Shown here piece by piece: positions 11,889 through 50,635 of a stretch of DNA of 64,000 bases. The stretch is from positions 2,430 through 66,429 of IMG/VR virus record IMGVR_UViG_2907847951_000001, one strand, 5' to 3'. Position 1 is the first letter of the stretch, and every line of letters starts with the position of its first letter. A program made the position numbers and the translations under genes. The notes under the pieces were generated by a model. That model had not been told where the DNA came from and did no database searches. It was given only the letters and a program-made list of their open reading frames with translations. Source of the DNA: a virus.

Positions 11889-12503
11889 TTACCGATTAAA
11901 TTTTTTGCCGATGTATACGACAACACCAATGATTTTTGCGTTGTCGCCAACTGCAATCAAAGGAGCTCTGGCATCGCTGGTTGCCAATAACCCTTGATTT
12001 TGATCTGGAATGAATTTGTAAACTGAGTCTGATCCGTTAATTCTTGCATAAACGAAGTCATTATTTCCGGCTGTTTCGTTTACATCCACAACGATAACGT
12101 CGCCATCAGCCGCTTCCGGGTATCCGGAATGTCTCTTTAAGATATACGCACGGCATCCATCGGAACGGATTTCCGATGGTGCTGCTATAAAGTCGGCCGT
12201 CTTAGTCTCACCTTCCCATAATGGCACCAGGAAAGCGCCGCTGACCACCTTGCCAGGGGCGACACCATCATTGTCAGATGCTTGCCCATTCCTCATTGGA
12301 CCTTCATTCATATCCAGCCACTCCGGGCGAACATTCAATGCCTTTGCAATTTGCACTATGTAGGCTGATTTGTTCGTCTTTCCAGAAAGGATTTTGAAGA
12401 TTGTCGGCTGAGCTACGCCAGCTGCTTCAGCAAGCTGCGCCTGCTTCATGCCGCTTTCCTTCATTGCCAGCTCAAGCCGTTCTGCGATCGTTTGGTTTTT
12501 CAT
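11889..12503 (-). CDS. cI: CI repressor (HTH plus degenerate S24 domain)
   Basis: QAQLAEAAGVAQPTIFKI HTH, GDVIVVD and IIGVV S24 motifs, divergent from cro; start at MKNQT follows pRM. Confidence 0.92.
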   Translation of the reverse strand: MKNQTIAERLELAMKESGMKQAQLAEAAGVAQPTIFKILSGKTNKSAYIVQIAKALNVRPEWLDMNEGPMRNGQASDNDGVAPGKVVSGAFLVPLWEGETKTADFIAAPSEIRSDGCRAYILKRHSGYPEAADGDVIVVDVNETAGNNDFVYARINGSDSVYKFIPDQNQGLLATSDARAPLIAVGDNAKIIGVVVYIGKKFNR

Positions 12504-12510
12504 AAGGCTG

Positions 12511-12606
12511 AACATATATCCGAGGGTATTTTTCGTCAAATAACTATGGGTATTGACTTTTGAGAAACTCATGGGTATATTTACTCTTGAACTTACCAAA
12601 GGGTAT
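12511..12606. promoter_or_regulatory. OR operators with pR and pRM
   Basis: Four sites ending GGGTAT at 12516, 12540, 12565, 12593; pR TTGACT-17-TATATT; pRM TTGACG-17-TATGTT on the minus strand. Confidence 0.8.
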
Positions 12607-29891: not shown

Positions 29892-30323
29892 ATGGCAGGT
29901 CTGACAATAAAGCAAGAGGCTTTCTGTCAGGCATACATCGAAACGGGTAATGCTTCTGAGGCTTATCGCACGGCGTATGCTGCTGACAAGATGAAGCCGG
30001 AAGCAATACACGTAAAAGCATCTGAGCTGCTTTCAAACGGTAAGGTATCGGTAAGGGTAAGTGAATTGCAGGGTGAAATTAAACAGCGCCATAACGTCAC
30101 TGTGGACTCCCTGATAGCGGAACTTGAAGAGGCAAGACAAAAGGCATTGAGCGCTGAAACGCCGCAATCATCCGCTGCTGTTGCCGCTACAATGGGCAAG
30201 GCGAAGCTAACCGGTCTGGATAAACAGATTGTTGAACTAACAGGTCAGGGCGGCGGCCCGGTTCGCGTGGTCACAATGTCACCTGACGATATTAAGCGGG
30301 TGATGGAAAATGACGATTGCTGA
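29892..30323 (+). CDS. terS: Terminase small subunit
   Basis: LTIKQEAFCQAYIETGNASEAYR motif. Confidence 0.92.
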   Translation: MAGLTIKQEAFCQAYIETGNASEAYRTAYAADKMKPEAIHVKASELLSNGKVSVRVSELQGEIKQRHNVTVDSLIAELEEARQKALSAETPQSSAAVAATMGKAKLTGLDKQIVELTGQGGGPVRVVTMSPDDIKRVMENDDC

Positions 30324-31806
30324 TTCCCTGATCCGCGCAAAAATGTGCGAAGCTGATCGCCTGTACTTTGCCCGATACTTCTTCAAGCAGCGAATGGGCG
30401 CAAAGATGATTGTCGCGCCTCATCACCAGGTCATTGACCGCACATTGCAGCGTGTCGTTGATGGTGAGATAAAGCGGCTGATTATTAACGTCCCGCCAGG
30501 CTATACCAAAACAGAGCTGGCGACGATTAACTTCATTGCTCATGGGCTGGCGCTTAATAACCGCTGTCGCTTCATGCACCTGTCTTACTCACACAACCTT
30601 GCACTCCTTAACTCATCGACAGCACGCGGCATCGTTAAGTCTGGTGCGTTTCAGGCTATGTGGCCTATGGCGCTGCGCGATGATGCAGACAGCAAGGCAA
30701 TGTGGTGGACGGAATACGGCGGTGGCGTATATGCCTCTTCCGCAGCCGGGCAGGTTACTGGCTTTCGTGCCGGCCATATGGAAGACGGATTTCAGGGCGC
30801 ATTGCTGATCGACGACCCTGTTAAGCCTGACGATGCCTTCTCCGAGGTTGTTAGAGATGGTATCAACAACCGATTTAACGAAACCATCAAATCACGACTG
30901 GCTGTGGAAACAACGCCGATCATCGTGATTATGCAGCGCATCCACTATCACGACCTGAGCGGTTATCTGTTGCGGGGTGGTAGCGGTGAAAAATGGTACC
31001 ACCTGAATCTTCCCGTGATTATTGATAACTCAGTCACCTATCCGGAAGAGAACACGCACGGGATCCCAATTGAACACGGGCTTCCTGATGGGTGGTTATG
31101 GCCTCGCAAGCACAACGAATCACACCGCATAGCATTAACATCGCATCGCAGAACCTTTGAGGCTCAGTACATGCAGGCGCCTCGCAGGTTCAATGCTGAA
31201 GGCGCTCTGTGGGATGAGTCGATGATTACCGCTGCGCACAACATTAAAATCCATCTTCCGAAAACGCGGACGGTCATCGCCATAGACCCGCAGGCAACAA
31301 ACAGCGAAGAAAGCGATGAAACGGGTATCGTGGCCGCCTCCTGCTATGGTGGCGGACTGGAGCGCATGTATTCCCTTGATGGTGATTACAGCGGCAAATA
31401 CACCCCCAATGGCTGGGCCAAAAAAGCGATGGATGCGTATGAAACGCATGAAGCTGATGCGATCGTAATCGAGACCAACCAGGGCGGTGACATGGCGGAA
31501 GAGACGCTTCGCAACGCCGGCTTTAAAGGTCGCATCATTCGCGTTCACGCGAGCAAGGGGAAGTTTGCCCGGGCTGAGCCAATATCAGCCTTGTATTCAC
31601 AAGGAAAGGTTGCGCACATGGGGAATCTTTATCAGGTTGAAAACCAGTTCCTTGAGTATGTGCCGGCCACTTCGAAGAAATCACCAGACAGGCTTGACGC
31701 CGCTGTGTGGGGACTGACTGAGCTTAGCCTTGGCAGTGGTGGAATCAATATGAACCCCAACCTGGTGAGACAGGCCTCTTCCCGCAATCACTTCCCACGT
31801 CGATGA
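30310..31806 (+). CDS. terL: Terminase large subunit
   Basis: NVPPGYTKT Walker A, LIDDP, IAIDP and SPDRLDA nuclease motifs. Confidence 0.95.
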   Translation: MTIADSLIRAKMCEADRLYFARYFFKQRMGAKMIVAPHHQVIDRTLQRVVDGEIKRLIINVPPGYTKTELATINFIAHGLALNNRCRFMHLSYSHNLALLNSSTARGIVKSGAFQAMWPMALRDDADSKAMWWTEYGGGVYASSAAGQVTGFRAGHMEDGFQGALLIDDPVKPDDAFSEVVRDGINNRFNETIKSRLAVETTPIIVIMQRIHYHDLSGYLLRGGSGEKWYHLNLPVIIDNSVTYPEENTHGIPIEHGLPDGWLWPRKHNESHRIALTSHRRTFEAQYMQAPRRFNAEGALWDESMITAAHNIKIHLPKTRTVIAIDPQATNSEESDETGIVAASCYGGGLERMYSLDGDYSGKYTPNGWAKKAMDAYETHEADAIVIETNQGGDMAEETLRNAGFKGRIIRVHASKGKFARAEPISALYSQGKVAHMGNLYQVENQFLEYVPATSKKSPDRLDAAVWGLTELSLGSGGINMNPNLVRQASSRNHFPRR

Positions 31807-31813
31807 GAAACAT

Positions 31814-33352
31814 ATGGCAAATTATAATAAACGCCGTCAACGTCGGCAGGGTGGCGCGCGCAAGCCGTTAACCATATCCGCGGCTATCCGAGAAAAAATC
31901 GAGAGTGGGGAGCTTATCCCGACGTTCGACCAGATTAAGTTGATGTACGGCCCGGCAAAGACGCTGGGAGCACCAAAAAGTGCTCAGATGGCAATGGACC
32001 ATCAGCTTGAGGTGTCCGGTGCTTATACGCTCTTACAGCACGCTTTCGACATGGGGCAGTTTCCAAACCTCGGCCCGAGCTTCATGGGGTATGCCGCGCT
32101 TTCATCCCTGACGCAGAACGGGTTAATTCGCGCCTGTGTCGAGACAGTCGCAGATGACATGACGCGAGAGTGGATCGAGATTACAGCCACGGACTCAAAT
32201 GGCGATGGCGACGATTCTGACGAAAAATCAGCCCTCGAAGAGGCGATGATTGACTTTCGCCTACAGGCCTTATGTCACAAGGCTGCCGAGTTTGACGGTT
32301 ACTTCGGTGGCTGCCTTATCTTTATTGATACCGGGGCATCAGATAGCCAGCTCTTAACTCCGCTCGATATCAGTGACAAGTCAGCTGAGCTGAAGAACTT
32401 CAAGCGCTTTACGATTATCGAGCCGATCAACGTCTTCCCTGGCAACTATGAATCACTCGACCCACTGAGCCCTCGGTACTATGTGCCCGACACATGGTGG
32501 GTGCTGGGTAAACAGGTTCACAAGAGCCGGCTGATTCGCGTCTGTGGTAACGAAGTCCCGGTCATCCTCAAGCCAACCTACAATTTTCTCGGCATCCCCC
32601 GCGCACAGATTCTCTATGACTATGTGCTGCACTTTCAGGATGCGAGAATGGCTGAAGCAAGGTTACTGGAGAAGTTCTCCCTGAAGGTCTTCAAGACCAA
32701 CATGCAGGACATCCTGACCAACCCCAACGCTACCAGCGGCATCGATGCACGAATTAACTACCTCACGGCCTACATGAGCAATGATGGTGTATTTGCGCTC
32801 GACAAAGAGATGGAAGACTTCATCAACGTCTCCGTCCCGCTGAATGGCGTTACCGATATCGTCCGGCAGCAACTGGAGTTCATCGTTGCAATCAACCGCA
32901 CTCCCGCCGTGAAGCTTATGGGCATTTCACCCCAGGGTTTCAATACCGGCGACGCGGATATCAAAAACTACAACGACCACATCAACTCGCAGCAGGAGAA
33001 AGTGCTCCGCGAACCGCTGCAGAAGATGCTGGACATCATCCAGATTGTGAAACTTGGCACTTATGACGAATCGGTGTCCTTCAAGTTCACCTCCCTGAAC
33101 GAAGACGATGAGAAGTCGATTGCCGAGACGCAGTTAATCAAGGCGCAGACCCGCCAGATTTACAAAGAAAGCGGCGACGTGGATTCGTTTGAGGTGCGGA
33201 AAGCTCTCTCCGATGACCCGCACAGCGGCTTTTACGGCATAGACGCAGAACAGGTTCCGGAAGGCGGCGATGACGAAGAAGAAACAGAAAACGGCATCTT
33301 CAACCCGACCGAACGCGGGACTGGAAGTGGAGTACAGGAAGAAGCTGCTTAG
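31814..33352 (+). CDS. Portal protein (DUF1073 type)
   Basis: Position after terL; VHKSRL and P..KLMGISP.G motifs. Confidence 0.85.
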   Translation: MANYNKRRQRRQGGARKPLTISAAIREKIESGELIPTFDQIKLMYGPAKTLGAPKSAQMAMDHQLEVSGAYTLLQHAFDMGQFPNLGPSFMGYAALSSLTQNGLIRACVETVADDMTREWIEITATDSNGDGDDSDEKSALEEAMIDFRLQALCHKAAEFDGYFGGCLIFIDTGASDSQLLTPLDISDKSAELKNFKRFTIIEPINVFPGNYESLDPLSPRYYVPDTWWVLGKQVHKSRLIRVCGNEVPVILKPTYNFLGIPRAQILYDYVLHFQDARMAEARLLEKFSLKVFKTNMQDILTNPNATSGIDARINYLTAYMSNDGVFALDKEMEDFINVSVPLNGVTDIVRQQLEFIVAINRTPAVKLMGISPQGFNTGDADIKNYNDHINSQQEKVLREPLQKMLDIIQIVKLGTYDESVSFKFTSLNEDDEKSIAETQLIKAQTRQIYKESGDVDSFEVRKALSDDPHSGFYGIDAEQVPEGGDDEEETENGIFNPTERGTGSGVQEEAA

Positions 33353-34067
33353 CCTTATCGACGAAATGTCTCGCTCTGTAGACTGGTGGTTAAGCGCCGA
33401 ATATCGCCGCAATGAAAGCGAAATTGTTGGCGATGCTTCACCGGCCAAAGAAGTCGGATCGAAGCTGATAAGCATCATGGCTACCTGGCGAGAGACTTTC
33501 GATAAAAAGGCGAAGGATATAGCCCTATGGTTTGTCCGCCGCTCCAATGCCTGGGCATCCACATCTGTAAAGAACAAGTTCAAGGCGCAGGACATGACCG
33601 TTAACTTCCGGGTTACTCCGGAGGTGCAAAATGTCCTCGACAGCCTCTACGAGACACAGGTTAGCCTCATTAAGTCCATTCCTGAGCAATACCTCACGCA
33701 AGTGCAGACTATGGTTCAGGAAAGCATTGTGCGCGGGCGTGATGTTGGTTACCTGAAGGATGAGCTTAAAAAGCGATACGGAATCACTGAGCGCAGGGCA
33801 AAGGTTATCGCCCGCGACCAGAACGCCAAGGCGACAAACTCAATCGCTCTTGAGCGCTGCAGGCAAGCCGGTATTACCCAGGGGATATGGGTCCACCGTG
33901 CGGGCGGGAGTAAAACCTTTCGTCACGCTCACGTGAAAATGAATGGCACCGAGTTTGAGCTTGCAAAAGGTTGCTGGGATGACCACGAAAAGCAATTCGT
34001 GCAACCCGGCCAGTTAATAAACTGCCGGTGCGAGTACAGGCCGGTGATTCCAACGCCCGGTGAGTAA
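33270..34067 (+). CDS. Minor head protein, MuF/SPP1 gp7 family
   Basis: RAKVIARDQ...R..H..MNG..F...PGQLINCRC motifs. Confidence 0.9.
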   Translation: MTKKKQKTASSTRPNAGLEVEYRKKLLSLIDEMSRSVDWWLSAEYRRNESEIVGDASPAKEVGSKLISIMATWRETFDKKAKDIALWFVRRSNAWASTSVKNKFKAQDMTVNFRVTPEVQNVLDSLYETQVSLIKSIPEQYLTQVQTMVQESIVRGRDVGYLKDELKKRYGITERRAKVIARDQNAKATNSIALERCRQAGITQGIWVHRAGGSKTFRHAHVKMNGTEFELAKGCWDDHEKQFVQPGQLINCRCEYRPVIPTPGE

Positions 34068-46585: not shown

Positions 46586-47442
46586 CTTACAAAATCAGAG
46601 ATCTAAAAGTTGAATTCACTTTAACAGATGGTGAGTTTGAAAGCGGAAGAGGAAATGTTTTAACTATTTCAAATGGAAAGGTAGATTGCGCTATTTCTGC
46701 TTATGGAGGAACTTCAGCCACTCAGATGGACATGAGTGTTTGGGGGTTGTCTCTTGATTATATGGCAAAGATTAGTGGTAAGTCACAAAGACAAACACAA
46801 GCTAAAAAAAACCTTGTGAAGGTTACTGCAGATGGAGAGGTGGTTTTTTTTGGTACGATAATTTCTGCCAGAATCAATCTAACACAATCTCCTGACGCCC
46901 CGCTGGAGATAACCGCGAATACAGCTGGATATTATCAAGCACTACCAATCCCTGATACATATGTTAAAGGTGAAACCACCGCGCAAGACGTTGTAAAATC
47001 AATATGCAATCAGGTCGGGCTTAAATTCGCAAACTATGGCGTAAACACACAGATAAAAGATGTACACTTGAAAGGAAACGCCATTGAGCAAATCAACTCT
47101 ATTGCACACGATTATGGCTTCTCCTTTGAATTGAATTTAGAAACTGTTTCTATATTCAAATATGGTACAGCAAGAGATAACATCATTCCTAGCGTAAGCC
47201 CAGACACAGGCTTGATAGGTTATCCAGTCTTTTACGATTTAGGGATTGCGTTTAGGTGCATGTTCTCTTCATCAATCGTAATCGCCAGGCTTATAGATCT
47301 AAAAACAATGCTTCCAAACGCTTCTGGTAGATATCAGGTATGCGAAGGTACAACGCACTATCTATCATCAAATGTCGAAGGTGGCTTTTGGGAAACTTAT
47401 GTCGTAGGTTTCCCAATATCTCCAGGGGTAAACGATGTCTAA
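46582..47442 (+). CDS. Baseplate hub protein
   Basis: SPDTGLIGYP motif; position before spike. Confidence 0.75.
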   Translation: MTYKIRDLKVEFTLTDGEFESGRGNVLTISNGKVDCAISAYGGTSATQMDMSVWGLSLDYMAKISGKSQRQTQAKKNLVKVTADGEVVFFGTIISARINLTQSPDAPLEITANTAGYYQALPIPDTYVKGETTAQDVVKSICNQVGLKFANYGVNTQIKDVHLKGNAIEQINSIAHDYGFSFELNLETVSIFKYGTARDNIIPSVSPDTGLIGYPVFYDLGIAFRCMFSSSIVIARLIDLKTMLPNASGRYQVCEGTTHYLSSNVEGGFWETYVVGFPISPGVNDV

Positions 47443-48046
47443 AAAACGCACCGTATCTCCGGTGGATTCCAGTTGCGATGCCAATATGCTGGGGTATGTG
47501 TTCGGCAGGCTTATAGGAAACATGACCTTTGTTAAAATTGTTAAAGTCATTGAAGTCGACATATCTAAAGGCATCGTGGATCTGGAAGGCCTCCTGTATA
47601 CAGTCAATGCCAATGGGGAAAGCCTGAATGATGGCGGCAGGTTCTTTTCTATACCATACCTTAGGCTGCAAAGGGGTAGTAGTGCAGTAGTCATGAATCC
47701 AGTAGTTGGTGATATTGGACTTATGGTGTGCTGCGATAGAGATATAACCGGAATCAAAGATACCAAGACAGGATCTGTACCTACAAGCGGTCGCCTACAT
47801 AGTGCAGCAGATGGAATTTACCTCACCTCCATTGCCTGCTTGTCCACAAACCCATCTCAATACATTGAGTTTTCAGATAATAAAATCACTATCGTAGCTC
47901 CACATGGTTTGCATGTAGATGGCGATATTACAACTAATGGAACAATTACGGCGTCGGGCGACGTGATAGGCGCAGGGATTTCACTTGATAACCATGTTCA
48001 TGGTGGGGTAGCATCAGGGGGCTCAACTACGTCAGGGCCGCAATGA
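47435..48046 (+). CDS. Baseplate central spike (gpV/gp45-like)
   Basis: PVVGDIG...CDRDI and C-terminal HVHGGV metal-binding apex. Confidence 0.88.
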   Translation: MSKKRTVSPVDSSCDANMLGYVFGRLIGNMTFVKIVKVIEVDISKGIVDLEGLLYTVNANGESLNDGGRFFSIPYLRLQRGSSAVVMNPVVGDIGLMVCCDRDITGIKDTKTGSVPTSGRLHSAADGIYLTSIACLSTNPSQYIEFSDNKITIVAPHGLHVDGDITTNGTITASGDVIGAGISLDNHVHGGVASGGSTTSGPQ

Positions 48047-48495
48047 TGAAAAAACTAATGGTTATCTTGTTTTTCTCCCCGCTAGCATTGGGCGGAGAGG
48101 CGCCGGTTAAGCACCTTCCATCAACAGAGAAGGTGTCTTTTGCTTGTGATAACCAATCAAGGTTTTATTATTTCGCTGCATTTGCCTCATTGTTATATGT
48201 GGACCCAGCAATTCCTCCATCAGATATTTATGCCAAGACTGGGCGTTACAGCAATGACACCTCTGCTTTTGATTATAATAAAAAAGAGGCTGAAAAATAC
48301 GGTGAGAAAATAATGATATCTAAAGCAGGTACTGAGAGAGCAATTGATTACTTCTATCGCAATCAGGATGATGCCAAATTATTTTCCTCGATGGAGTATC
48401 AATCTTCGTTCTATAAAGTATGCATGCTAAATCCGGTAAGGTATGTTATTTCATATAAGGAACTTGAGTCATCGGGTTTTATGAGAGAGAAATGA
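48043..48495 (+). CDS. Exported AT-rich moron protein
   Basis: MKKLMVILFFSPLALG signal peptide; low GC. Confidence 0.7.
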   Translation: MMKKLMVILFFSPLALGGEAPVKHLPSTEKVSFACDNQSRFYYFAAFASLLYVDPAIPPSDIYAKTGRYSNDTSAFDYNKKEAEKYGEKIMISKAGTERAIDYFYRNQDDAKLFSSMEYQSSFYKVCMLNPVRYVISYKELESSGFMREK

Positions 48496-48499
48496 ATGT

Positions 48500-49048
48500 T
48501 CATTTGCTCATCCCTAACATAGAGCGAATAAATGAACTAAAAGTAGATTTTTTATTTGGTTTCTCTTCTTCATTTTCTAATAAAATGTGTAGTTCACAAC
48601 CACAGCCAAATTCCATTCCTGGAAAAGACTGGCCGTAAGGTGTCTGGCATCCATTTTTAATCACAAAGATTGCGTCATTCAGACTTTCATGGGTTTTCCG
48701 ATTGGTAGCCTTGCAACTTCCGGCTCTAAACTTCCATTTGCCATTTTTTATTCCTTGACTGATGGCAGCGTTTTTTGCCCTCTCTGAGCTGGCTTTGCCT
48801 CTAAAAGATAAACTAATGATGGCTGATTGCTTCTCATCTAGACCAAAGTGAATCGCGATCTGCTTCCTGAAGGAATAAGGATCTCTGCCGTTGTTGCATT
48901 CATCTCTGTAAAATTTTTCTAATGAAGTTAACGCTCCCTTTTGCCTATATGGATTGAATCCCATGAAAGAAATTGCGACCTGTTCAGCCACGTCTTTATC
49001 AAGCATGGCTAGTTTTATGATGTCATCTACAATATCCTGTTTTTTCAT
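48500..49048 (-). CDS. MuF/gp7-domain paralog downstream of mnt
   Basis: Manual alignment to the C-terminal half of 33270..34067; TAATG overlap with mnt. Confidence 0.75.
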   Translation of the reverse strand: MKKQDIVDDIIKLAMLDKDVAEQVAISFMGFNPYRQKGALTSLEKFYRDECNNGRDPYSFRKQIAIHFGLDEKQSAIISLSFRGKASSERAKNAAISQGIKNGKWKFRAGSCKATNRKTHESLNDAIFVIKNGCQTPYGQSFPGMEFGCGCELHILLENEEEKPNKKSTFSSFIRSMLGMSK

Positions 49049-49302
49049 TATTTATCTTTAGCATTGCTTTGATAGAGGGAGCTAAGGGTTTCATAAACCA
49101 TTTTTTTGACTAGTTCAGACTGCTCTTCTGCAATGGCCATGGCATTGTCGTTAGATGTTGTCGATGGTTTATCAAGCGCATCTTGCACGATTTGAAGCAA
49201 CTCAGCATTGAACGATCGCCCATTGGCGATAGCTCTATCCTTAAGTTTTTTCTTCACATCAGCCGGCATTCGGAATGTGAATTTTGGTTCATCTCTGGCC
49301 AT
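49048..49302 (-). CDS. mnt: Mnt repressor
   Basis: MARDEPKFTFRMP...NGRS.N.ELLQIVQDAL.KP...EQSELVKKMV matches P22 Mnt. Confidence 0.9.
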   Translation of the reverse strand: MARDEPKFTFRMPADVKKKLKDRAIANGRSFNAELLQIVQDALDKPSTTSNDNAMAIAEEQSELVKKMVYETLSSLYQSNAKDK

Positions 49303-49324
49303 ATTGAGTTCCATTGTTTAAGAA

Positions 49325-49377
49325 TTGACATGATAGAAGCAGTCTACTATATTCTCAATAAGGTCACGGTGACCCCA
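49325..49377 (+). promoter_or_regulatory. Pant with Arc and Mnt operators
   Basis: TTGACA-17-TATATT; ATGATAGAAGCAGTCTACTAT (P22 Oarc-like); GGTCACGGTGACC palindrome at the Omnt position. Confidence 0.85.
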
Positions 49378-49387
49378 TGGAGGCAAG

Positions 49388-49549
49388 ATGAAAGGCATGA
49401 GCAAAAATCCGCAGTTCAATCTGCGATGGCCGAAAGACGTTCTGGATATGGTTCGCAAGGTTGCGGAAGAAAATGGAAGGTCTGTTAACTCGGAGATCTA
49501 CCAGAGGGTAATGGAGAGCTTTAAAAAAGAAGGACGCTTAAGTGTTTAA
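49388..49549 (+). CDS. arc: Arc repressor
   Basis: Manual translation MKGMSKNPQFNLRWPKDVLDMVRKVAEENGRSVNSEIYQRVMESFKKEGRLSV, nearly identical to P22 Arc. Confidence 0.95.
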   Translation: MKGMSKNPQFNLRWPKDVLDMVRKVAEENGRSVNSEIYQRVMESFKKEGRLSV

Positions 49550-49617
49550 AAAGTTGAAGCCCCAACTGCTGTAACAGTCAGGGCTTCGGTATCAACAAAC
49601 CACCTAGGAATGATGAC
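49550..49617 (-). ncRNA. sar: Sar antisense RNA
   Basis: GAAGCCCCAACTGCTGTAACAGTCAGGGCTTC hairpin in the arc-ant gap as in P22; minus-strand TATACT -10 in the ant start. Confidence 0.75.
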
Positions 49618-50601
49618 ATGACAAGTATAGCAATTCTTGAAGCTGTTAACACCTCTTACGTCCCATTCAACGGGCAGCAAATTATCACGGCGATGGCTGC
49701 CGGTGTTGCATATGTTGCGATGAAACCAATCGTTGAAAACCTCGGCATGAGTTGGTCTACTCAGCAAACAAAGCTGATGAAACAACTGGAAAAATTCAAC
49801 TGTGTTCATATGAACATGGTTGCTGCTGATGGCAAGTTGCGCAAACTTCTTTGCCTCCCCCTGAAGAAGCTCAACGGCTGGCTTTTCAGCATCAACCCTG
49901 AAAAAGTTCGTGCTGATATTCGCGACAAGCTGATTCAGTATCAGGAAGAGTGCTTTACCGCCCTTCACGACTATTGGTCTAAAGGGATTGCCATTAAGTC
50001 AGCGCCTGAGACCACTGTCGATGAGCGAACTCCGCTGCGCGGAATTGTTAATCGCATCATGGGCAAGTACGGCCTGACTTATCAGTCAGTGTACAAAATG
50101 GTTCACAAAGAGTTTGGGGTAAGGCACATCGATGAGTTATCCCCCAAGCAAACTGCAGAAGCTGTCGAGTACCTTGCCTCGAAAGCAATTGAAGGCGAGT
50201 TCATTGCAAGGAAAGAGAAAAACAACTTTTCTGGTGATTATAATTTCCCGCTTCAAAGCGCAGACCCTGCCAGCAGATCTTTTGGGAACGTTTGGATGAC
50301 GCCAAAGGTTATTTTGGATGAGAGCAATCCAGCTCCTGAGCTGGAACTACTGGATAGGCTTGAAAAAGATGGTTATTGCGTCGATGGCGTAAGGCTGCGC
50401 ATACATTCAATGTATCAGATAGCCAAATATCATCTTGATATGCAGGCTGCAATATCTTCTGCTGCGGTCAGCCTGGGTTTCATAAATGACTCTCTGAAAT
50501 CCCAGTCCAAGGAAAGGGGGCTTAACGTCATCTTCAATGGAAGCAAGTGTATGAAAGAGGGGCCCATAACAGGACTCCCCGAAAGGTCCCTAAAAAGATA
50601 A
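49618..50601 (+). CDS. ant: Antirepressor Ant (P22 Ant N-domain)
   Basis: [18 protein letters not shown]...[25 protein letters not shown] matches P22 Ant. Confidence 0.92.
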
Positions 50602-50610
50602 AAATCCTTA

Positions 50611-50635
50611 AACCTCGCTTCGGCGGGGTTTTTTT
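50611..50635 (+). terminator. Intrinsic terminator after ant
   Basis: AACCTCGC-TTCG-GCGGGGTT TTTTT. Confidence 0.75.

Follow-up and report, generated by a model that had tools for sequence, protein, structure and literature searches.

In tailed phages, proteins of the MuF/gp7 type count among the most common minor head proteins, and to our knowledge the biochemistry of the MuF core is defined no further than portal binding and a part in early infection; a search of the PDB located no solved structure of this core. Here we describe a short MuF-like gene that lies not in a head module but in a lysogeny operon: ORF182, an open reading frame (ORF) of 182 amino acids (aa) in a stretch of 64,000 nucleotides of viral DNA (hereafter the window; positions 2,430 to 66,429 of IMG/VR record IMGVR_UViG_2907847951_000001). 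Several described systems bear on it. SPP1 gp7 is a strong binder of the portal and aids the onset of infection, and only ~25% of the virions lacking it are infectious (PMC6316719). The MuF-domain protein gp44 of 80alpha (PMC12323379) is ejected along with the DNA and binds and protects blunt DNA ends (PMC7290940), while its incorporation into the capsid requires portal crown residues 488-511 (PMC12889711). MuF polymorphic toxins (Jamet et al. 2017, PMC5576092) likewise place a MuF domain in biological conflict on temperate phages; in these, a full-length MuF carries a toxin domain at its C-terminus, the gene lies in the head module, and injection of the protein is presumed. With respect to location, a described counterpart is sieA of P22, whose lysogen-expressed product is an inner-membrane block to DNA injection that acts on the ejection proteins (PMC10883804). 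Our literature search, which extended to neither supplements nor subscription journals, returned MuF as a head, pilot or toxin-carrier domain only, and no MuF-like gene or defence in a lysogeny operon.

ORF182 has in common with MuF, SPP1 gp7, Mu gpF and 80alpha gp44 a core of ~110 residues with its GRD, W, H and PG..CxC landmarks, as well as the predicted fold class. It differs from these proteins in that it lacks the N-terminal half and the ARDQ motif, and in that it has gained an invariant Cys and a terminal amphipathic peptide. Its position is likewise different, since it lies in an immI lysogeny operon on the opposite strand and not beside the portal gene, and it falls into a separate clade. 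Relative to the MuF polymorphic toxins, ORF182 is a truncated core without toxin domain in a lysogeny operon, although the supplementary lists of PMC5576092 might include relatives. The protein consists of ~50 residues of helices, the MuF/gp7 core of ~110 residues and a short amphipathic tail. Its features, together with the canonical MuF gene of the same phage, are as follows:

48500..49048, minus strand: ORF182, short MuF-like protein of 182 aa, stop codon 48500-48502 (ORF list)
48569..48901, minus strand: region of MuF-core homology, residues 50-160 (hhalign aligned columns)
48713-48715, 48689-48691, 48602-48604 and 48596-48598, minus strand: codons for the invariant residues C112, H120, C149 and C151, respectively (29 sequences)
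48503..48550, minus strand: C-terminal tail, residues 167-182 (STFSSFIRSML...), an amphipathic helix that is weak in ORF182
33270..34067, plus strand: canonical MuF/gp7-type minor head protein of 265 aa, beside the portal gene (PF04233 E 1e-12; phrog_324 E 2e-68; TIGR01641 41.7 bits)

ORF182 is a real gene. The ORF that an earlier note on this DNA, made from the letters alone, had read here is present at exactly 48500..49048 on the minus strand, and its translation matches the strings quoted in that note. The note had also described a likeness to the C-terminal half of the head protein encoded at 33270..34067, and this likeness is real: BLASTP aligned ORF182 residues 40-157 with residues 142-260 of the phage's own MuF, i.e. 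with the Pfam Phage_Mu_F region, at 55.5 bits and E 3e-14 (35/124 identical, or 28%). In this alignment the His (H120) and the CxC (C149, C151) are kept and ARDQ is replaced by SLSF, while the N-terminal residues 1-49 are without a detectable sequence match, in line with the note. The gene for the phage's own MuF was the only other match to ORF182 in the provirus record (E 2.7e-11). Scores against the established families fell below threshold. ORF182 reached 15.3 bits against PF04233 (E 0.035; cut-off 29.6) over profile positions 12-111 of 112, 15 bits against TIGR01641 (E 0.025; cut-off 39.65) and E 0.0028 against phrog_324. A six-frame search of the record with PF04233 returned the canonical MuF only and did not recover ORF182, and none of 9 other members of the ORF182 family that were tested reached the Pfam cut-off.

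Since the direct family scores were sub-threshold, homology was tested in three further ways. An exhaustive phmmer scan of 1.84 billion representatives yielded 10 proteins at E <= 0.001, of which 7 were 179-208 aa in length, one was 999 aa, and 2 were of canonical MuF length, the latter with library-wide E-values of 1.5e-4 and 1.7e-4. Profile alignment by hhalign of the 29-member short family with 3 canonical MuFs gave a probability of 99.2% and E 2.9e-19 over 113 columns. Finally, an AF2 model of ORF182 built with the family alignment had a mean pLDDT of 89.3 and a pTM of 0.81, compared with a pLDDT of 31.9 from the single sequence; that alignment comprised 32 rows including the 3 canonical MuFs, which may have biased the model slightly. 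Foldseek matched this model to 11 BFVD entries at E <= 0.001, the best at 6e-06; among the 50 BFVD matches listed, each of the 37 that are named is a minor capsid, head morphogenesis or MuF/GpF-like protein. Against the PDB there was no Foldseek match at E <= 0.001, and a sequence search returned nothing usable. The profile and structure comparisons with MuF that the earlier note had proposed therefore came out positive, by the hhalign probability and by the uniformly MuF-type named matches in BFVD. Taken together, these results demonstrate that ORF182 is genuinely homologous to the C-terminal core of MuF/gp7, though it has diverged. The 999-aa protein in the phmmer scan (P0006) matched ORF182 residues 13-46 in 7 stretches (53% identity, E 1.4e-08), and looks like a repeat protein that shares the N-terminal helical segment.

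We next consider the operon to which ORF182 belongs. The ATG of ORF182 shares one base with the TAA stop codon of the gene upstream (TAATG), and a terminator scan found no terminator-like site between the two genes. The upstream gene is mnt, as the earlier note had it, both by Pfam (Arc E 1.3e-18; Repressor_Mnt E 4.2e-08) and by comparison with P22, whose Mnt is 65% identical over 80 residues, i.e. over its whole length; the coupling of ORF182 to mnt by a 1-nt stop/start overlap is thereby confirmed. The remainder of the switch is as follows:

49048..49314, minus strand: mnt, an 88-aa ORF; comparison with P22 Mnt points to the second Met (49302) as the probable start
49330..49358, minus strand: Pmnt-like promoter, TTGAGA-17-TATCAT (10/12 in a consensus scan)
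49325..49353, plus strand: Pant-like promoter, TTGACA-17-TATATT, face to face with Pmnt and overlapping it (11/12 in the same scan)
49388..49549, plus strand: arc (Pfam Arc E 4.1e-28; megablast 82.6% to epsilon34 arc-ant)
49556..49587, minus strand: terminator-like hairpin at the site of the P22/epsilon34 sar antisense RNA (terminator scan; epsilon34 sar annotation)
49618..50601, plus strand: ant, encoding the antirepressor (Pfam P22_AR_N E 5.5e-44)
50610..50631, plus strand: terminator-like hairpin after ant (terminator scan)

This is a P22-type immI switch in which Mnt, Arc, Ant, the overlapping Pant and Pmnt promoters and the sar-like terminator are all present. In the P22 immI model, lysogens produce Mnt from Pmnt, and Mnt in turn represses Pant. 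The promoter/operator core differs by one position from those of P22 and epsilon34, where the epsilon34 annotation reads Pmnt/Pant/arcO, and we infer expression of ORF182 in lysogens by homology because this core is nearly identical to that of the 2 described phages. As the second gene of the mnt operon, ORF182 is thus most likely expressed from Pmnt in lysogens, its translation being coupled to that of mnt. Its strand is opposite to that of all late genes, and it lies 14.4 kb downstream of the head-module MuF gene, placing it neither in the head module nor on the late strand. Because the flanking late genes are all on the other strand, late transcription must cross ORF182 and mnt in antisense. 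The immI switch of P22, whose arc-ant DNA is about 73-83% identical, is situated between ejection-protein and tailspike genes of a podovirus, whereas here the baseplate cluster of a temperate myovirus prophage has received the switch as a transplant. The complete immI cassette (48043-50631) sits inside this cluster, between the V-like spike gene and the W-like wedge gene, and the same arrangement of immI in the baseplate cluster was seen in Klebsiella phage ST899-OXA48phi17.1 (L005).

The earlier note had placed ORF182 in the position of sieA, and this holds: the order in P22 is mnt, orf59a, sieA, all on the mnt strand, and ORF182, which is downstream of mnt on that strand, takes the place of orf59a and sieA. 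The 2 cargo genes are also of similar size (164 aa for SieA and 182 aa for ORF182), yet the proteins are not alike. BLASTP of ORF182 against P22 SieA gave E 3.2, i.e. no similarity, the comparison covering the P22 type and not the 2 further SieA types in PMC10883804. SieA is an integral inner-membrane protein with three predicted transmembrane segments (PMC10883804), while ORF182 has none, and SieA has its own promoter ~700 bp from mnt, while ORF182 is translationally coupled. In epsilon34, a terminator directly follows mnt. In ST899-OXA48phi17.1, an unrelated 217-aa gene that matches no family overlaps the mnt-like gene.

The survey of cargo downstream of mnt that the earlier note had called for covered 80 IMG/VR loci, namely the best 80 of 197 stretches that encode an Mnt relative in an alignment-based scan; a scan with the single mnt sequence had found nothing. 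The contents of these loci were varied. None of the 80 had an ORF182 homolog at E <= 1e-3, and 5/80 had a P22-type SieA by direct tblastn. A larger set of 27 SieA-like loci obtained from ORF clustering was discarded as an artefact of a shared non-coding upstream extension. A 239-aa gene together with a PIN-domain gene directly followed mnt at 10 loci; 6 loci had a 199-aa gene, and one a gene for a Rap1a-like protein. These observations establish the slot behind mnt as a variable, exchangeable cargo site. They also make it a minable hot spot, containing SieA, PIN pairs, a Rap1a-like protein, the ORF182 family and several unknowns. At one of the loci with the PIN pair (L064, 4308-5566), the 239-aa gene, which is of no known family, overlaps a 182-aa PIN-domain gene (Pfam PIN E 4.1e-10), and judged from sequence such a pair may be of the toxin type or an abortive-infection pair in the SieA slot. 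At another locus (L023, 4252-4593), a signal-peptide-bearing protein of the Rap1a family (type VI secretion system [T6SS] immunity; Pfam Rap1a E 1.1e-13) is encoded right after mnt.

The earlier note had regarded ORF182 as a paralog of the phage's own MuF. Read as a copy made within this phage, that claim did not stand up. ORF182 scored 53.1 and 51.6 bits against 2 unrelated MuFs, compared to 55.5 bits against the phage's own, which is itself 42% identical to one of the 2 unrelated proteins. A maximum-likelihood tree of the core, unrooted and containing 32 rows with none dropped, resolved 9 short proteins from Enterobacterales (ORF182 among them), 20 short environmental proteins, and the 3 canonical MuFs including the phage's own, with a support of 99/93 for the branch separating the canonical MuFs. 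We draw from this tree no conclusion as to the order of origin, since it has no root and the branches of the canonical rows are long. The equal scores against foreign MuFs and the separate clade indicate that ORF182 belongs, to judge by these comparisons, to an old, separately evolving family that came as cargo. The family numbers 29 short proteins, all labelled 'hypothetical protein'. Its Enterobacterales members come from Klebsiella, Rahnella, Yersinia and Serratia, and its environmental members from Gallionellaceae, Methylobacter and Desulfurivibrionaceae assemblies. It is a distinct, unannotated subfamily of the MuF superfamily.

Identity within this family is only 18-32%, with the exception of P0001 (91%). 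Nevertheless, ten residues are invariant in 29/29 sequences (D56, W105, C112, H120, F128, G133, P143, G144, C149 and C151), and their conservation despite such low identity argues for a functional protein. Eight of these (D56, W105, H120, G133, P143, G144, C149 and C151) are common to all 32 sequences when the 3 canonical MuFs are included. C112 is absent from 3/3 canonical MuFs aligned, and the Cys3His tetrad is for this reason a family-specific gain; the Cys-His-Cys-x-Cys set is a probable zinc site. Conversely, the residues D183 and Q184 of the ARDQ motif are invariant in the 3 canonical MuFs, and the short family has SLSF, NSFR or RFFAN in its place.

The termini of the family are also distinctive. 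For 7/9 Enterobacterales members, no 11-mer of the protein is more amphipathic than that at the extreme C-terminus, which is cationic and has a hydrophobic moment of 0.62-0.87 (background 0.29 +/- 0.14). In ORF182, AF2 places a helix at residues 169-177 with low pLDDT. Among the environmental members, 12 of the 14 examined have a peptide of the MFxKIFRKEK type at the N-terminus instead. These terminal peptides are akin to the membrane-targeting helices found in MinD and FtsA, a resemblance we regard as a lead and not as a result. Two environmental members (P0044 and P0045) have an additional N-terminal extension of ~105 residues without a Pfam match. Two others (P0004 and P0007) have strongly basic C-terminal extensions with tail net charges of +10 and +11, reminiscent of the basic DNA-binding tail of 80alpha gp44.

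A second genomic context was obtained from a pattern scan with P0005, the only such scan to give a locus (L003). In this locus, an Arc-family gene of 79 aa (Pfam Arc E 4.2e-05) is followed, after 115 bp, by a family member 27% identical to ORF182. The surrounding element is a lambdoid prophage, and the family member's gene is located between that for the Q antiterminator and those for HicAB, a glycosyltransferase and lysis, antisense to the late genes and followed by a hairpin terminator of its own. The family was thus paired with an Arc/Mnt-type gene and pointed against the late genes in 2/2 contexts, a small number. The region from Q to lysis in L003 (3456-7449) is densely packed with morons, including HicA/HicB, two glycosyltransferase genes and a gene for a 125-aa secreted protein.

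What might such a protein do in a lysogen? We regard ORF182 as a prophage moron or as exclusion cargo whose domain derives from a structural protein. The function we tentatively favor, and consider possible rather than probable, is that of a lysogen-expressed MuF mimic directed against phages, acting by superinfection exclusion or by interference with assembly. According to this proposal, Pmnt would drive mnt-ORF182 in the lysogen and ORF182 would be translated by coupling to mnt, while in lytic growth Arc, along with late transcription in antisense, would shut the gene off. The free MuF core would probably be stabilized by zinc, and its amphipathic terminal peptide might anchor it at the inner membrane. 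When a MuF-encoding phage comes in or replicates, this core would occupy the partner to which the MuF-type pilot protein of that phage binds. Candidate partners would be the portal crown or the complex of ejected DNA and protein, and the mimic might act either on entry, at the membrane, or on assembly, at the portal. The outcome would be a failure of DNA delivery, of end protection or of head completion. Zinc binding, membrane association, partner and effect on phages are all properties that we infer. A more specific and far-reaching version, which we regard as somewhat unlikely, is superinfection exclusion by structural-protein mimicry, in which a zinc-stabilized, membrane-tethered MuF mimic made from Pmnt captures the portal crown, the ejected pilot complex or DNA ends; Arc/Mnt plus mini-MuF would then form a portable defence cassette of Enterobacterales prophages, with a sister group in environmental Proteobacteria. 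Should phage exclusion be borne out, ORF182 would stand as the first defence to be derived from a copy of the pilot protein of its target. A lone MuF core expressed in lysogens would in addition offer a natural minimal domain for finding the partners of the MuF core and for addressing the question of zinc and the His/Cys residues.

Several observations weigh against an anti-phage mimic. The short family lacks the canonical N-terminal ~140 residues as well as the ARDQ motif, and the missing N-terminal half may be the portal-binding part. DNA-end binding by 80alpha gp44 maps to the C-terminal tail (residues 272-331) and neither half of the protein complements (PMC7290940). As the gp44 halves fail alone and end binding lies outside the core, a bare MuF core may not bind the same partners. 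ORF182 itself has no transmembrane segment (maximum Kyte-Doolittle 19-residue mean 0.89), and its tail is weakly amphipathic, with a moment of 0.55 (the same in the 91% relative) and a net charge of 0. A decoy that poisons MuF-dependent assembly could also hurt its own phage, which has both a MuF and a portal. PADLOC gave no match for ORF182. Moreover, the family is of extreme rarity: 50,697 phage records and 72,556 plasmids gave no tblastn match, complete E. coli genomes were without a match in a DNA-only search (blastn), and pattern scans gave no confirmed locus in IMG/VR (with ORF182, P0002, P0003, A3 and A6) or among GTDB species representatives (with A2 and A3). A scan of metagenome contigs with A2 likewise gave no confirmed locus. 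These blank pattern scans are weak evidence because they need exact short peptide patterns. Lastly, the genomic contexts read number 2, the window and L003, and the environmental subfamily lies outside these.

We likewise asked how well the same evidence accommodates other functions. One unlikely explanation is that ORF182 is cargo for lysogenic conversion or regulation and not for exclusion, i.e. a small zinc-stabilized module that binds nucleic acid or protein and acts on the host or on another mobile element, in which case its MuF ancestry would be uninformative as to its partner. The contents of the slot are indeed not all anti-phage, as illustrated by the Rap1a-like T6SS immunity protein and by small secreted proteins, and the gains (C112, terminal peptide) and losses (ARDQ, N-terminal half) of the family describe a protein that has diverged from the head-protein role. 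Its sister subfamily occurs in environmental Proteobacteria, on contigs of up to 534 kb. However, the eight residues held in common with canonical MuFs are invariant in 32/32 sequences, suggesting that the core keeps an ancestral interaction or fold role, and both contexts read are prophages. The pairing with an Arc-family gene raises a different explanation, which we consider improbable, namely a toxin-antitoxin-like or abortive-infection pair. Here the ribbon-helix-helix (RHH) protein of the Arc/Mnt type would serve as antitoxin and regulate its own expression, and phage attack or loss of the element would release the short MuF-like protein as a toxin. An Arc-family gene lies immediately upstream on the same strand in 2/2 contexts, with a stop/start overlap in the window, and there are weak matches of the Mnt-like proteins to antitoxin RHH models (FitA-like at 2.3e-06 for the window Mnt; FitA-like at 4.1e-09 and HicB at 5.8e-05 in phi17.1). 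Yet P22 Mnt, 65% identical to that of the window, has no such partner, the genes in L003 are 115 bp apart, and no toxin family was matched in the Pfam and PADLOC searches. Related mnt genes precede unrelated cargo, meaning that repressor and cargo do not co-vary, and this reading of Mnt as an antitoxin is weakened because Mnt is a shared regulator in front of differing cargo.

An accessory role in the prophage's own cycle, in which ORF182 would bind the phage's own portal or MuF to counter wasteful or harmful assembly from leaky late expression, or would modulate the Mnt/Ant switch, strikes us as very unlikely. Such a role would fit co-expression with the maintenance repressor, as suggested by operon layout and promoters, and also the presence in the same phage of genes for its natural partners, the portal and a canonical MuF. 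It fits poorly with ORF182 being no closer to its own MuF than to foreign ones, and with its absence from phi17.1, which has the same immI-in-baseplate layout, and from 80/80 other mnt loci; because these switches are without ORF182, the gene is dispensable for the switch. We give little credence to ORF182 as a virion or packaged protein, a second small MuF, despite a 160-aa protein of Pseudomonas phage NP3 that is annotated as minor capsid and compares with the model at TM 0.51/0.57, and despite Atlas clusters (161-201 aa) that score 0.93-0.94, since the gene is on the strand opposite the late genes, 14 kb from the head module, coupled to mnt and low in guanine-cytosine (GC) content. Equally hard to credit is a decaying, functionless passenger: rarity of the family would be in keeping with it, and is countered by intact ORFs, ten invariant residues in 29 sequences at 18-32% identity and a confident, compact predicted fold. 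The lysogen-expressed MuF mimic remains the function that we tentatively favor.

The phage that carries this locus is a temperate contractile-tailed phage (a myovirus prophage) of the Klebsiella type. The source record is a provirus of 66,429 bases, within which the 64-kb window lies. In addition to the features above, the following were located:

11889..12599: CI/LexA-type repressor
30310..31806: terminase
31814..33352, plus strand: portal protein of the PF06381 family, portals being what MuF-type proteins are known to bind (phrog_146 E 3.5e-100; precomputed PF06381 on homologs)
47435..48046: P2 V-like spike (baseplate)
48043..48495, plus strand: 150-aa ORF with a signal-peptide-like N-terminus, low-GC cargo (ORF list, sequence)
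from 50636: W-like and J-like wedge proteins

Other genes identified encode a protease/scaffold protein, the major head protein, the tail sheath, the tape measure and the baseplate hub. The insert between the V-like spike and W-like genes measures 2.6 kb and comprises five genes, namely the 150-aa ORF, ORF182, mnt, arc and ant. It is low in GC (0.36-0.41 over 48200-49250, compared with 0.45-0.55 in the flanks), and no meaningful repeats were found around the module. The 150-aa ORF is ATGA-coupled to the baseplate V-like gene and converges on ORF182, with 4 bp between the 2 stop codons. It belongs to no family in Pfam, PHROG, PADLOC or NCBIfam, its Atlas matches are all <0.9, and it is not similar to the secreted-protein gene beside the pair in L003. 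Judged by its sequence, this ORF may represent further cargo or encode a factor directed to the periplasm.

The portal ORF overlaps the listed MuF ORF by 83 nt, and because of this overlap the true start of the MuF gene may be farther downstream. The portal family PF06381 corresponds to DUF1073, and several sources name homologs of this portal 'anti-CBASS protein Acb1 family'. Longer relatives of the portal bear additional C-terminal domains (PF18798, PF18809 and PF18825).

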